Of a DNA stretch of 64,000 nucleotides, positions 11,402 through 16,943 are shown one piece after another. This DNA is from Escherichia coli (GTDB lineage: Bacteria; Pseudomonadota; Gammaproteobacteria; Enterobacterales; Enterobacteriaceae): NCBI RefSeq assembly GCF_050920415.1, contig NZ_CP169309.1; one strand, written 5' to 3'. Every line of letters starts with the position of its first letter. The stretch's first letter is position 1. The translations under genes were made by a program, and so were the position numbers. The notes under the pieces were generated by a model that was given only the letters and a program-made list of their open reading frames with translations, ran no database searches and was not told the origin of the DNA.

Positions 11402-12445
11402 CTAGTTGTAGTTGATTTTAACAATCAGGTCCTTTTGAAATGGGCCATAAACCAGTGTTGCACCTGGTTCTGTCGTTAGCTTCGCCTGGTAACTTCGTGT
11501 TATTACTGCTGGGGTTTCATTAGGTTTATAAGTAGTAAATAATTTATACTGATTAAATTTCATATCTGTCTTATCAACTTGATCTGTAATGTGCATTATA
11601 AGACCGTTTCCCATTTCTAAGTGTGTATTATCATATAATGTATCATCAGTGTAGAAACTGGTTGCGACATCAAATTGTTCGCTACAATTAGCAGTAGCAT
11701 CCCGAATTGTTGAAACATCAAATGTAGCTGTTGGTGGTATAGTCACGATTGTACTCGGGTCAATACGTCCGAAATTAACGATTTGACTTTCAGGGAAAAT
11801 GCGAATGTCTATGCTACAATCAAGAAAAGAAATATTGTCGAGTCCAGTAATATTAGCGTGTAAATTTTTGGCTCTATTATCGGTGTTTGCTCCTTGTGAA
11901 CCATCGAATTGCAATATATTGACCGTACTGAAGTCAATTTTCGTGTCCTTTGGGGGGTGTTGTTTAAGTTTTACATACAAGCGAAATCGAGCATTGAAGG
12001 TGACCTCTGTTTGGAGGACACCAGTATTAGTGCATGTGTCAGTCACAATCTGAAATGGGTTTGCTCTATCCAGACAATATCCTGTATCAATGCCCTGATT
12101 GTTTCCTTCGTAATCCTGTCCATTATAAGTTACACCAAATGTTAAGTATGGGTTGTTTATCACAGAGGGATCATTGAACTCTGCTATTTTTATCCAGGCA
12201 TGAACATTTTCATATGGATTGCTTTCTGACCAATTGACGGCCCTGTTGCAAAAAACTTTTGTATTAATATCATCGCTTTCCCAAATTTTCTGACCAATCT
12301 CAGCATCCTGTGGTACTTTGAACGCAGGCATAGGTTTATTTATTTCTGTATTACCAAAACGTTTATTCTGATAGCAATCGACTGCATAAGAAGAAACATT
12401 AACAAACAAGCACAATATTGCCAGGAGACGAAAAAGCATGATCAT
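11402..12445 (-). CDS. yqiI: Fimbrial adhesin-like subunit of the chaperone-usher operon
   Basis: 347-aa ORF with signal peptide; last gene of ygiL-yqiGHI cluster. Confidence 0.8.
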   Translation of the reverse strand: MIMLFRLLAILCLFVNVSSYAVDCYQNKRFGNTEINKPMPAFKVPQDAEIGQKIWESDDINTKVFCNRAVNWSESNPYENVHAWIKIAEFNDPSVINNPYLTFGVTYNGQDYEGNNQGIDTGYCLDRANPFQIVTDTCTNTGVLQTEVTFNARFRLYVKLKQHPPKDTKIDFSTVNILQFDGSQGANTDNRAKNLHANITGLDNISFLDCSIDIRIFPESQIVNFGRIDPSTIVTIPPTATFDVSTIRDATANCSEQFDVATSFYTDDTLYDNTHLEMGNGLIMHITDQVDKTDMKFNQYKLFTTYKPNETPAVITRSYQAKLTTEPGATLVYGPFQKDLIVKINYN

Positions 12446-13191
12446 AATTTTCCCTTCTTCGCAGGTGTAGCTTGGCAGAGTGACTGAACGGAATTACAGT
12501 CAATTTTGAACATTTCCAGCCCACCGTAATCACCAACAAAACCCAGTAGGAAGGTCGTCGGAAGGTTTTTAATTTGCTGAGTTGCAGTCCCAAAAGGGGT
12601 AACCATAATGCTGTCTGTTCCGGGCATTAATGTCTTGCCGTTAGTTCCGATATAACCGACGGTAATGTGATAAGGCGTCGGGTTATTCAGGGTCAACCCG
12701 GCGGCGCTGTGGGTAATCGTCAATTTTTGCAGGGGTACCATCTCTCCCTCTTTTAATTCAATCGATTTGGGTCGCCAGAACAGTTTCAGACGACTTTGCA
12801 TGGCGATTTGCATTACATTCTGTTCTTTGGCGCGCGGCGGAATTTCCCGCACGTTATAGTAAAACAGCGTTTCTCTGTCCTGTGGCAAGTTGTTTAATGC
12901 GGACAGCGCCATCAGGCGAATTTGCACTTGCTCATTGGCCTCGATACGTTCCATTGGGGGGAGCGTTGATATGTAATCGCGCGTTTTTTTACCGCTGGCG
13001 TCCTCAATCCACGATTGAGCTAAATAAGGATCGATTTTACTTTGGTTGGTCAGGCGAACAGTTGCGCTTTTATTTGAAGCATTAAAAATTATGCGCGTTC
13101 TGTCGGGGGAGACAGTCGCTTGGGCGAAGTTACAGAACCCCAGTAAACAAATCATTCCTGTTACGGTTAATAGCGATTTCATTTTTTTCAT
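12442..13191 (-). CDS. yqiH: Periplasmic fimbrial chaperone (PapD-like)
   Basis: 249-aa ORF with signal peptide; overlaps yqiI start by 4 nt. Confidence 0.85.
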   Translation of the reverse strand: MKKMKSLLTVTGMICLLGFCNFAQATVSPDRTRIIFNASNKSATVRLTNQSKIDPYLAQSWIEDASGKKTRDYISTLPPMERIEANEQVQIRLMALSALNNLPQDRETLFYYNVREIPPRAKEQNVMQIAMQSRLKLFWRPKSIELKEGEMVPLQKLTITHSAAGLTLNNPTPYHITVGYIGTNGKTLMPGTDSIMVTPFGTATQQIKNLPTTFLLGFVGDYGGLEMFKIDCNSVQSLCQATPAKKGKL

Positions 13192-13197
13192 CCTGAA

Positions 13198-15747: not shown

Positions 15748-15806
15748 GGTGCTGATGAAATTTCATCAGTTTTACCGCCTGGTGTTGTGTAGGTATTAAT
15801 TGCCGA

Positions 15807-16370
15807 TTACTTGTAGTCGAGTACGTAATTAGCCTGTGCCTGCACATTACCCGGGGTCGCGGTGCGTCCCAGAGATTCCATACGGGCTTTAAAGTTCAAC
15901 TCCTGGTAGGAATTAGTTGTCGGGAAGTCGATGGTGATGGGGGTACCAAGAGTCACGTTGGTATTGTCTGATTTCACCAGACGTACTCCTACATCAGTTG
16001 CGCCGCCGATGTTACCTTCCTGTGTGTTTTTAAGCAGGTTGGAGTCGGTAGTGTCAACGCTGGCAGAGCTAAAGGTGATTTTGACTTTATCAACAGTGTT
16101 AGTGCCGTCAGATAAAATACAATCCTGCAAATGAATGGTGACATCTACAGGCAGAGATTTCTGTCCGCTTTTTAATACAGTATCAGCAACCTCACCGAGA
16201 TTTATTGTTTGATCTTCATCACCAGGAGCAATAGAGCAAGGTGCATCGATAACTTCACCCTTAAACGTTATTTTACCGGAACCCTGATTAGGGTCATCAG
16301 CAAGCGCGTTAAATGCAACGCCAGATAATAGTGTGGTTGCGAATATAGATAATAATGTTTTTTTTAACAT
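15807..16370 (-). CDS. ygiL: Major fimbrial subunit
   Basis: 187-aa ORF with signal peptide and pilin-like C-terminal beta strand; first gene of operon; AT-rich region upstream. Confidence 0.85.
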   Translation of the reverse strand: MLKKTLLSIFATTLLSGVAFNALADDPNQGSGKITFKGEVIDAPCSIAPGDEDQTINLGEVADTVLKSGQKSLPVDVTIHLQDCILSDGTNTVDKVKITFSSASVDTTDSNLLKNTQEGNIGGATDVGVRLVKSDNTNVTLGTPITIDFPTTNSYQELNFKARMESLGRTATPGNVQAQANYVLDYK

Positions 16371-16943
16371 GACTTAATCCTTTATAAATAGGAAGAGCTA
16401 TGGATGAGGAAAATATAGGTTTGAATCTAATATTAATTCCGCTATGGACATTACCATAATCAAAGATAATTTGGCTTGTTATTAATATTTAATACTGATT
16501 AAGTAAAACTTAAAATATACATTTTAGTTATATATTTTGATGCATATATCTAGATATTTGTTGAATTTCGTTATGTATGATACATTTTTTGTATGGGTCA
16601 CGGTGAAAGAATGACCACTTATTGACAAAAGTTTACTTCTGATATTGTAAGGTGGTAGAGTATAATTATTATAACGAGTAGGAACGTAATAATCACGAAG
16701 ATATAATATATATCTGGTGGTGCTTATTAATATTAATTAGTGATGTTCCATCCGGGAATAGGATGCATTAATAGTCTTGGTTGTTTCTTTTTTAATCGAG
16801 TATGGTGTATAATACAACACTTGCTATGATCGAAATCATATACTTGATCCACAATTATGCGAGTATATGAATATATTCAACGATGGATATGTGAAATTTT
16901 AATGCTAAATGTTTAGTAATGTTAAATTATGAAGGTGAAAAGG

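Follow-up and report, generated by a model that had tools for sequence, protein, structure and literature searches.

The window analyzed here, i.e., the whole stretch of 64,000 nucleotides from an Escherichia coli chromosome, very probably carries at 11353–16824 a low-GC chromosomal islet with a complete Yqi-type operon, which lies at the usual ribB–yqiD/zupT site and represents a rare, deep-branching allele combining an ExPEC-like pilin and usher with a tip adhesin of the E. fergusonii class. Apart from this diverged adhesin and an issue of naming, it is an ordinary chaperone-usher operon of the already-known Yqi type. Its features, in window coordinates, are the following:

11353..16824, minus strand: whole insert, as defined against genomes whose ribB–yqiD site is empty (5.47 kb, low G+C)
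11353..11401, no strand assigned: left end of the island, where ribB and the adhesin gene converge, with a bidirectional hairpin terminator (11367–11399)
11402..12445, minus strand: predicted two-domain tip adhesin (347 aa, intact ORF)
12442..13191, minus strand: periplasmic chaperone (249 aa, PapD-like)
13198..15720, minus strand: outer-membrane usher (840 aa from the ATG at MNNKNTF, intact ORF)
15807..16370, minus strand: major fimbrial subunit, a YgiL-family pilin (187 aa with signal peptide, intact ORF)
16371..16824, minus strand: AT-rich upstream region, presumed promoter/regulatory and part of the island (G+C ~0.27; absent from empty-site genomes)
9988..10021, no strand assigned: empty K-12-type site, with 34 bp between the stop codons of ubiK and glgS

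Operon anatomy and encoded proteins

Four uninterrupted ORFs occupy the minus strand between 11402 and 16370, corresponding to a major pilin, an usher, a chaperone, and a predicted two-domain tip adhesin. All four were full-length when re-read, in agreement with an earlier note on this DNA that had described the genes as intact. The same note had reported a 4-nt overlap between "yqiH" and "yqiI", and this was borne out: the minus strand reads ...AAATTATGATCATG..., so that the TGA of the chaperone gene and the ATG of the adhesin gene share the motif ATGA. The usher and chaperone genes are 6 nt apart and the pilin and usher genes 86 nt apart; a hairpin in the latter gap, considered as a possible attenuator, was no better than shuffles (z −0.5) and was dropped. 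For the usher, the program-made ORF list runs on to a TTG at 15747, and the ATG at MNNKNTF was used instead, while RefSeq begins the counterpart of the chaperone three codons later (246 aa). Overall, the operon and its upstream region (11402–16928) have a G+C content of 0.42, compared to 0.505 for the window.

The feature is a chaperone-usher fimbrial operon, with an usher, a two-domain PapD-like chaperone, a pilin, and a two-domain adhesin all represented. The pilin begins with a hydrophobic leader ending in ...NALA, as read from the sequence, includes a Pfam Fimbrial domain (PF00419, residues 34–187, E 4.6e-24), and scored 342 bits (cut-off 189) with NCBIfam model NF007276, which names YgiL-type "fimbrial-like protein". 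All three usher domains lie in one 840-aa ORF, i.e., PapC_N (PF13954, residues 37–181, E 7e-36), Usher (PF00577, 199–753, E 2e-164), and PapC_C (PF13953, 765–819, E 7e-12), and the chaperone displayed PapD_N (PF00345, 27–144, E 2e-35) and PapD_C (PF02753, 168–225, E 5e-9). For both proteins, the top-scoring curated NCBIfam models were those of the Salmonella Std fimbriae (StdA–D, pi-class): StdB for the usher (707 bits, under the equivalog cut-off of 1289) and StdC for the chaperone (192 bits, under 370). Since these scores are well under the equivalog cut-offs, Std is a relative of the window operon rather than an orthologue, and the window operon also differs from it in having no stdEF-like regulator genes. 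As to pi-class membership, the top curated models were StdB, StdC, SteC, and StfD, each below its cut-off, and any clade placement of the usher by top-match similarity (StdB) is tentative.

The 347-aa protein had no match in Pfam or NCBIfam, and its architecture was assessed by PDB sequence search and by structure prediction. Together these indicate a two-domain tip adhesin, with a signal peptide (residues 1–21), a receptor-binding domain (~22–211), and a pilin domain (~212–347). Residues 22–211 match the solved N-terminal domains 9rwu and 9rwv (E 1e-65), as well as PDB entries 9rx0, 9rww, and 9rwe; of these, the 9rx0 and 9rww chains, labeled "Fimbrial protein" with the organism not given, matched the N-terminal domain at E ~1e-31. 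A literature search on the five entries returned only chance string matches. The top Foldseek matches of the AF2 model of the protein, a confident one (pLDDT 87.6, pTM 0.82), were FimH, CupB6, PapG, LpfD, FocH, and the PapG pilin domain, at TM 0.69–0.71.

On the basis of these domains and of what is established for the chaperone-usher pathway, Sec would export all four proteins, the PapD-like chaperone would cap each subunit through donor-strand complementation, and the usher pore would take up the chaperone–adhesin complex first. Being recruited first and having no N-terminal extension of its own, the adhesin would come to lie at the tip, with YgiL-type pilins polymerized below it by donor-strand exchange, and its N-terminal domain would bind a ligand on the host or on a surface, probably a glycan. 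Transcription would presumably start in the ~450-bp, 27%-GC upstream region and end at the bidirectional hairpin common to the operon and ribB.

Chromosomal site and relation to the K-12 operon

The borders of the island were defined by comparison with K-12 and with a close relative, 2020CK-00188, both of which have an empty ribB–yqiD site: homology to these genomes ends at 11352 and restarts at 16825, and the insert stands in place of ~140 bp carrying the ribB terminator. The hairpin at the left end combines a 15-bp G+C-rich stem with T runs flanking it on both strands, and its predicted stability (MFE −21.6 and −24.3 kcal/mol, z −5.3 and −5.6) was reached by none of 200 shuffles. Neither mobility genes nor repeats were found at the island flanks. 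ST131, four further E. coli strains, and E. fergusonii ATCC 35469 have the same gene order as the window, zupT–yqiD–pilin–usher–chaperone–adhesin–ribB–ubiK–glgS, and ubiK and glgS were adjacent in all eight other Yqi-bearing loci examined.

The earlier note had placed the operon at the ygiL–yqiGHI locus, as an intact form of the K-12 cluster, and the position and identity of the genes contradict this. In the K-12 W3110 annotation, ygiL–IS2–yqiG'–yqiH–yqiI lies between ubiK (yqiC) and glgS, and the usher is truncated next to IS2, so that the note was right in describing yqiG as IS-disrupted. The two operons are homologous, with the same four genes in equal order, pilins in the same NCBIfam model, and neighborhoods within 1.3 kb of each other. 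However, the window operon is at ribB–yqiD rather than ubiK–glgS and has an unbroken usher, while the K-12 type occurs in A/B1/D/E-type genomes. Amino acid identity to K-12 was 61% for the pilin (YgiL), 57% for the usher (YqiG remnant), 47% for the chaperone (YqiH), and 35% for the adhesin (YqiI). At the nucleotide level, megablast of the window operon against the K-12 type and blastn of the adhesin gene against K-12 returned no match, and the K-12 type, present at 90–100% nucleotide identity in at least 3268 genomes, was never retrieved by the window query.

These comparisons bear on a reading in which the window operon would be the IS-free orthologue of K-12 ygiL–yqiGHI and the same cluster as ExPEC Yqi/EA-I. 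Common family membership and gene order, a pilin that passes the YgiL model, and the IS2-truncated K-12 usher all speak for it, yet the intergenic site is a different one, the window has no operon at the K-12 site, and ribB, its riboswitch, and ubiK keep a constant order and orientation at all loci examined. The literature also separates "Yqi" and "Yqi-like" as distinct types, reported to be mutually exclusive (Wurpel 2013, PMC3559732). We thus consider this reading extremely improbable, and K-12 orthology is ruled out on position and identity. Because the window and K-12 clusters are not the same locus, the note's comparison of their intactness is moot.

By locus position and pairwise usher identity, the operon can instead be assigned to the "Yqi" type sensu Wurpel et al. 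2013: its usher is 93–94% identical in amino acids to five Yqi ushers compared to 57% to K-12 YqiG, in pairwise comparisons. The names ygiL/yqiGHI, "Yqi", "Ygi", and "EA/I" represent an annotation trap, in that they cover two related but separate operons located 1.3 kb apart and not co-occurring.

Divergence and possible origin of the tip adhesin

The Yqi (EA/I, Ygi) operons of phylogroup B2 strains (IMT5155, UTI89, CFT073, ST131) share with the window the ribB–yqiD/zupT site, the four-gene order, the gene lengths, the position of the 4-nt chaperone/adhesin overlap, and an upstream region of like length and AT content (G+C 0.26–0.28). Ygi fimbriae were reportedly described by Spurbeck in 2011. 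The window host differs in not being a typical B2 strain, with core flanks 95.3–96.0% identical to ST131. Compared to the ST131 operon, amino acid identity was 97% for the pilin, 93% for the usher, 88% for the chaperone, and 61% for the adhesin. Divergence from ST131 increases in steps as one moves to the 3' end. The pilin-to-yqiD spacer (16371–16943) is 74% identical to ST131 and 83–87% to most other Yqi alleles.

Within the adhesin, the receptor-binding domain is 53% identical to ST131 and 53–56% to ExPEC alleles. Among the five further E. coli alleles in the comparison, adhesins are 77–99% identical to one another, whereas the window adhesin is 61–62% identical to the ExPEC ones, and its gene is 65–67% identical in nucleotides to that of 991 other genomes (Nissle 1917 and APEC O1:K1:H7 among them). 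By sequence, the adhesin is not close to the characterized IMT5155/UTI89/CFT073 allele of ExPEC adhesin I. The earlier note had linked the intact cluster to this adhesin; such an ExPEC adhesin does exist (PMC2771359), but it is not an intact form of the K-12 cluster. The EA/I cluster encodes short fimbriae, seen by electron microscopy in ST95, and helps adhesion and colonization (PMC2771359), with roles in lung and kidney colonization known for the CFT073/IMT5155 alleles only (PMC8545135, PMC2771359). The CFT073 Yqi adhesin binds terminal beta-GlcNAc and fucosylated glycans (PMC8545135). Neither the solved 9rwu structure nor the CFT073 glycan-array data should be carried over to the window allele. 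Its N-terminal domain being only ~53–56% identical, its ligand is not readable from the CFT073 data. Likewise, "yqi" PCR or BLAST typing built on ExPEC alleles would miss the window adhesin.

The nearest relative of the window adhesin is that of E. fergusonii ATCC 35469 (CAQ90482.1), with 87% amino acid identity, the same length of 347 aa, and the same site and gene order. The other proteins are 96% (pilin), 93% (usher), and 93% (chaperone) identical between the two, and the receptor-binding domain reaches 90.5%. The adhesin, above all its receptor-binding domain, belongs to the E. fergusonii class. The E. fergusonii locus nonetheless differs from the window in being from another species, in an island upstream region that aligns over just 164 of 454 nt at 75%, and in flanking core genes that are 72–94% identical.

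This distribution of identities could have arisen if the adhesin gene, together with the 3' portion of the chaperone gene, had been recombined in from an E. fergusonii-like donor, rather than inherited as an old allele. The adhesin gene is 86% identical in nucleotides to E. fergusonii vs 65% to ST131, and the flanking core shows the reverse (95–97% to ST131 vs 72–94% to E. fergusonii); operon genes are 86–94% identical between the window and E. fergusonii, above zupT, ygiD, yqiJ, and glgS (72–79%), and the stepwise increase in divergence from ST131 would also be expected. However, an identity of 86% is well short of that of a recent transfer, mobility genes and repeats are absent from the island flanks, and the usher (88–90%) and pilin (93–94%) are about equidistant in all three pairings, a pattern consistent with ancient allelic classes maintained by descent. 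Overall, we regard such recombination as rather unlikely.

Tentatively, and on sequence comparison, the window allele may represent a second Yqi tip-adhesin class in E. coli, common to E. fergusonii and kept by trans-species polymorphism or interspecies exchange. Given a receptor-binding domain ~54% identical to the ExPEC class, a different receptor is possible, and perhaps with it another host or tissue range. The operon adds a further example of conserved assembly machinery (pilin, usher) paired with a strongly diverged tip adhesin.

Upstream region, distribution, and intactness

The earlier note had also described the region upstream of the pilin gene as extremely AT-rich with long A/T tracts, and hence likely H-NS-bound and silenced. 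The first point holds: over 560 bp (16371–16930), G+C was 0.273 vs 0.505 for the window, the most AT-rich stretch of the 64 kb, and only 0.09% of 560-bp segments were that low, all of them overlapping 16371–16930. As for the tracts, nine A/T-only runs of 10–16 nt were detected, but just two homopolymer runs of ≥5 (both T6). The island contributes ~454 bp of this region (16371–16824), and the final ~105 bp are the conserved yqiD upstream segment, present without the operon too.

A sigma-70 promoter scan of the upstream region yielded 14 promoter-like matches compared to 15.2 ± 4.2 in shuffles, so that no promoter was located. No inverted repeats suitable for a fimS-type invertible switch were found upstream, and potential small regulator ORFs in 16371–17175 amounted to short chance ORFs and a yqiD-like ORF. 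The sole Rfam match was the ribB FMN riboswitch. For a pap-type methylation switch, no PapI/PapB-like genes were found, and the sole GATC sites (16828 and 16846) are 18 bp apart inside the conserved yqiD upstream segment. H-NS repression is plausible by likeness to other cryptic E. coli fimbrial operons, with AT-richness as the basis of a "silenced" or "H-NS-bound" label. Many chaperone-usher fimbriae of commensal E. coli are described as cryptic and H-NS-repressed, in a general statement that cites an earlier study (Wurpel 2013, PMC3559732), and a literature search on ygiL and H-NS returned nothing on the promoter of this operon.

Among 5426 complete E. coli genomes, 992–993 carry Yqi, at least 3268 carry Yqi-like, and, by difference, ~1100 carry neither or a more divergent form. 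The window adhesin gene was found at ≥99% identity in two of the 5426, one from a pig and one from an animal-source food, and in one of the two the allele is IS2-disrupted. An identical adhesin protein is encoded on about 112 contigs labeled E. coli or Escherichia; one accession in this exact-match cluster, EGB62006.1, is presumably from a cryptic clade I strain. We also considered whether the window might not be E. coli and rejected this, as the operon and flanks match an E. coli chromosome at 100% identity; the lineage is nonetheless an unusually divergent one.

Two strains whose flanking core is 99% identical lack the operon, and in a 100%-identical sister genome IS2 is inserted at the chaperone/adhesin junction. 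The operon is thus dispensable and may be cryptic or decaying in this lineage. A stronger form of this view, which we consider decidedly unlikely, is that of a sequence-intact but cryptic remnant heading for loss and never usefully expressed. Beyond these absences and the IS2 insertion, it could draw on the extreme AT content upstream, of a kind usually silenced, and on the lack of a dedicated activator gene. Against it, the four ORFs are full-length, their signal peptides are present and their domains complete, 34 columns, four of them cysteines, stay invariant across 61 homologues, and strain N96 has the same four genes intact with 1 aa difference in total. ExPEC versions with equally AT-rich upstream regions (G+C 0.26–0.28) moreover have measurable in vivo roles (PMC2771359).

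Anatomy of the operon

The fimbrial insert carries four uninterrupted ORFs, arranged head to tail on the window's minus strand. These and the elements beside them are as follows:

10443-10591, plus strand: FMN riboswitch upstream of ribB (Rfam RF00050, 120.9 bits, E = 1.6e-28)
11367-11399, both strands: bidirectional terminator hairpin between the convergent ribB and adhesin genes (z -5.3 and -5.6)
11402-12445, minus strand: tip adhesin, last gene, 347 aa
12442-13191, minus strand: chaperone, 249 aa
13198-15720, minus strand: usher, 840 aa, starting at the ATG of MNNKNTF, which is also the RefSeq start in identical genomes
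15807-16370, minus strand: pilin, 187 aa

Pfam domains were detected in the usher (PapC_N, Usher and PapC_C), the chaperone (PapD_N and PapD_C) and the pilin (Fimbrial), and the pilin also passed the NCBI curated YgiL-type model (342 bits; cut-off 189). The 347-aa last protein had no family match in Pfam or NCBIfam. Despite this, we identify it as a two-domain tip adhesin, based on three results: residues 22-211 are matched by five PDB entries made up of that domain alone (9rwu and 9rwv, E = 1e-65; 9rx0, 9rww and 9rwe); an AlphaFold model built from 61 homologues is confident (pLDDT 87.6, pTM 0.82); and the top fold matches of this model are the tip adhesins FimH, CupB6, PapG, LpfD and FocH, its C-terminal part resembling the PapG pilin domain (TM 0.69-0.71). 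With pilin, usher, chaperone and tip adhesin identified, the operon is complete, as an earlier note made from the sequence alone had proposed; the chaperone/last-gene overlap described there is an ATGA shared by the chaperone stop and the adhesin start. The feature is thus real and intact. Operons of this kind are well known, and the domain content allows a confident statement of the mechanism. All five PDB entries represent the N-terminal domain alone, from members of the same adhesin family, and one resembles K-12 YqiI; a literature search found no paper citing them.

A Yqi-type operon at the ribB-yqiD position

In K-12 W3110, the gene order is yqiJ, glgS, yqiI, yqiH, truncated usher, IS2, ygiL, ubiK, FMN riboswitch, ribB, yqiD and zupT, while the window reads yqiJ, glgS, ubiK, riboswitch, ribB, adhesin, chaperone, usher, pilin, yqiD-like ORF and zupT. 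Compared in this way, the K-12 site is empty in the window, where only 34 bp separate the ubiK and glgS stops, and the operon sits one intergenic region beyond it. At the amino acid level, the pilin is 61% identical to YgiL of K-12, the usher 57% to the YqiG remnant, the chaperone 47% to YqiH and the adhesin 35% to YqiI. Position and low protein identity together rule out the K-12 ygiL-yqiGHI locus, the label originally given; what the window carries is an operon of the Yqi type, at the site used in ExPEC and E. fergusonii. The K-12 usher is indeed disrupted, truncated beside IS2 in W3110, but treating ExPEC Yqi as the intact form of that cluster merged two types: the K-12 Yqi-like cluster lies between glgS and ubiK with IS2 next to its truncated usher, whereas the window's Yqi operon is intact and lies at ribB-yqiD.

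The ST131 (B2) genome likewise carries a four-gene operon at ribB-yqiD, with ubiK and glgS adjacent, as do four further E. coli strains and E. fergusonii ATCC 35469 at the ribB-yqiD site. The type has been studied under the names ExPEC adhesin I (EA/I) and Yqi. Antao et al. cloned a 4,975-bp cluster from APEC IMT5155, observed short fimbriae with it, found adhesion and lung colonisation reduced in a yqi mutant, and recorded the cluster as absent from K-12 and intestinal pathotypes (PMC2771359). In the classification of Wurpel et al. (PMC3559732), Yqi, found in B2, and Yqi-like, found in A, B1, D and E, are close relatives that differ in locus position and are mutually exclusive. Our genome counts agree with this picture: among 5426 complete E. 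coli genomes, 992-993 carry the Yqi operon and at least 3268 the K-12-type operon, and in every one of the nine Yqi-bearing loci inspected, the window's and eight fetched, the ubiK-glgS site was empty.

Insert borders and upstream region

Aligned against K-12 and against a strain whose core flank is 99% identical, the insert spans 11353-16824 (5.47 kb) and replaces about 140 bp bearing the ribB terminator in empty-site genomes. The strong hairpin at 11367-11399, which differs in sequence from the ribB terminator of island-free genomes, takes over its job.

G+C is 42% across the operon and upstream region (11402-16928) and falls to 0.273 in the 560 bp upstream of the pilin gene (0.505 for the window), the most AT-rich stretch in the 64 kb. 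The very AT-rich region noted earlier is therefore confirmed; the "long A/T tracts" there are 10-16-nt stretches in which A and T mix, not homopolymers. The pilin-yqiD spacer, which includes this AT-rich stretch, shares 83-87% identity with most other Yqi alleles (74% with ST131), so that AT-richness belongs to the type and is not peculiar to this copy. Within the upstream region, we detected no inverted-repeat switch, pap-like paired Dam sites, regulator ORF or known RNA element, and promoter-like matches occurred at chance frequency; a literature search found no paper on this Yqi promoter. H-NS repression would be a reasonable inference from the composition and from the general statement, citing an earlier study, that H-NS represses many of the cryptic chaperone-usher operons of E. 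coli (PMC3559732).

A rare adhesin in an uncommon lineage

This copy diverges from its counterparts chiefly in the adhesin:

Amino acid identity to ST131: pilin 97%, usher 93%, chaperone 88%, adhesin 61%
Amino acid identity to E. fergusonii ATCC 35469: pilin 96%, usher 93%, chaperone 93%, adhesin 87%

Along the operon, nucleotide identity to ST131 is about 90-95% for the pilin and usher genes and descends in steps to 52-73% within the adhesin gene. Five other E. coli alleles of the adhesin share 77-99% identity among themselves but 61-62% with the window's version (53-56% in the receptor-binding domain, 65-69% in the pilin domain); against E. fergusonii, the receptor-binding domain reaches 90.5%. 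For the solved domain 9rwu, identity is 97% to a common E. coli Yqi allele and 55% to the window adhesin. Hence the proposed ExPEC adhesin identity holds for type and site but not for the adhesin, which differs from the characterised EA/I allele.

By blastn, only two of the 5426 genomes have an adhesin gene at least 99% identical, N96 (Tibetan pig) and MFDS1022581 (animal-source food); in a further 991 it is 65-67% identical. In a large protein collection, about 112 contigs under the names E. coli or Escherichia encode the exact protein; one step further away, at 86%, comes the cluster of the standard E. fergusonii adhesin, ATCC 35469 included. The sole new element, and only mildly so, is the presence in E. 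coli of this rare adhesin of the E. fergusonii class.

Only about 18 of the 5426 genomes match the core flank from zupT to parE (17176-25000) at 98% or more; the remainder reach at most 97.3% (95.6-95.9% for K-12). The window therefore belongs to an uncommon and divergent lineage of E. coli. Two of the closest relatives by core flank (99.0-99.3%), 2020CK-00188 and R32_14_1F, lack both Yqi and Yqi-like operons, the ribB-yqiD and ubiK-glgS sites being empty (6184-8774 in each of their loci, L009 and L010). MFDS1022581 is 100% identical over operon and flanks apart from an IS2 at the chaperone/adhesin junction (5141-6369 in its locus, L002; window about 12350) that truncates the adhesin gene, an insertion independent of that in K-12, where a different operon was hit. 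The islet is dispensable, and its presence varies even between near relatives.

In the flanking core genes the relation is the reverse of that in the adhesin, with 95-97% identity to ST131 as against 72-94% to E. fergusonii. With flanks nearer ST131 and adhesin nearer E. fergusonii, the adhesin class is common to both species, through either old polymorphism or past exchange; recent transfer is ruled out by the 86% nucleotide identity of the adhesin gene. Across the aligned loci (L011 2499-11679, window 8888-18880), the fimbrial genes are 86-94% identical to E. fergusonii at the nucleotide level, above zupT, ygiD, yqiJ and glgS (72-79%); ribB is at 94%.

The divergent haplotype extends past the island border into the adjoining segment (16825-17114), which holds a yqiD-like small membrane-protein ORF (16929/16944-17114, plus strand). 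This ORF is 96% identical to ST131 at the nucleotide level and only about 81% to K-12, with neighbouring zupT at 95-96% to both. Gene content beside ygiD is a further presence/absence difference in the neighbourhood: ST131 (10167-11131 in its locus, L003) and E. fergusonii (L011 1-1521) have dsbI and dsbL there, the latter species with an additional arylsulfotransferase gene, while the window (18918-20078) and K-12 have ygiC and ygiB.
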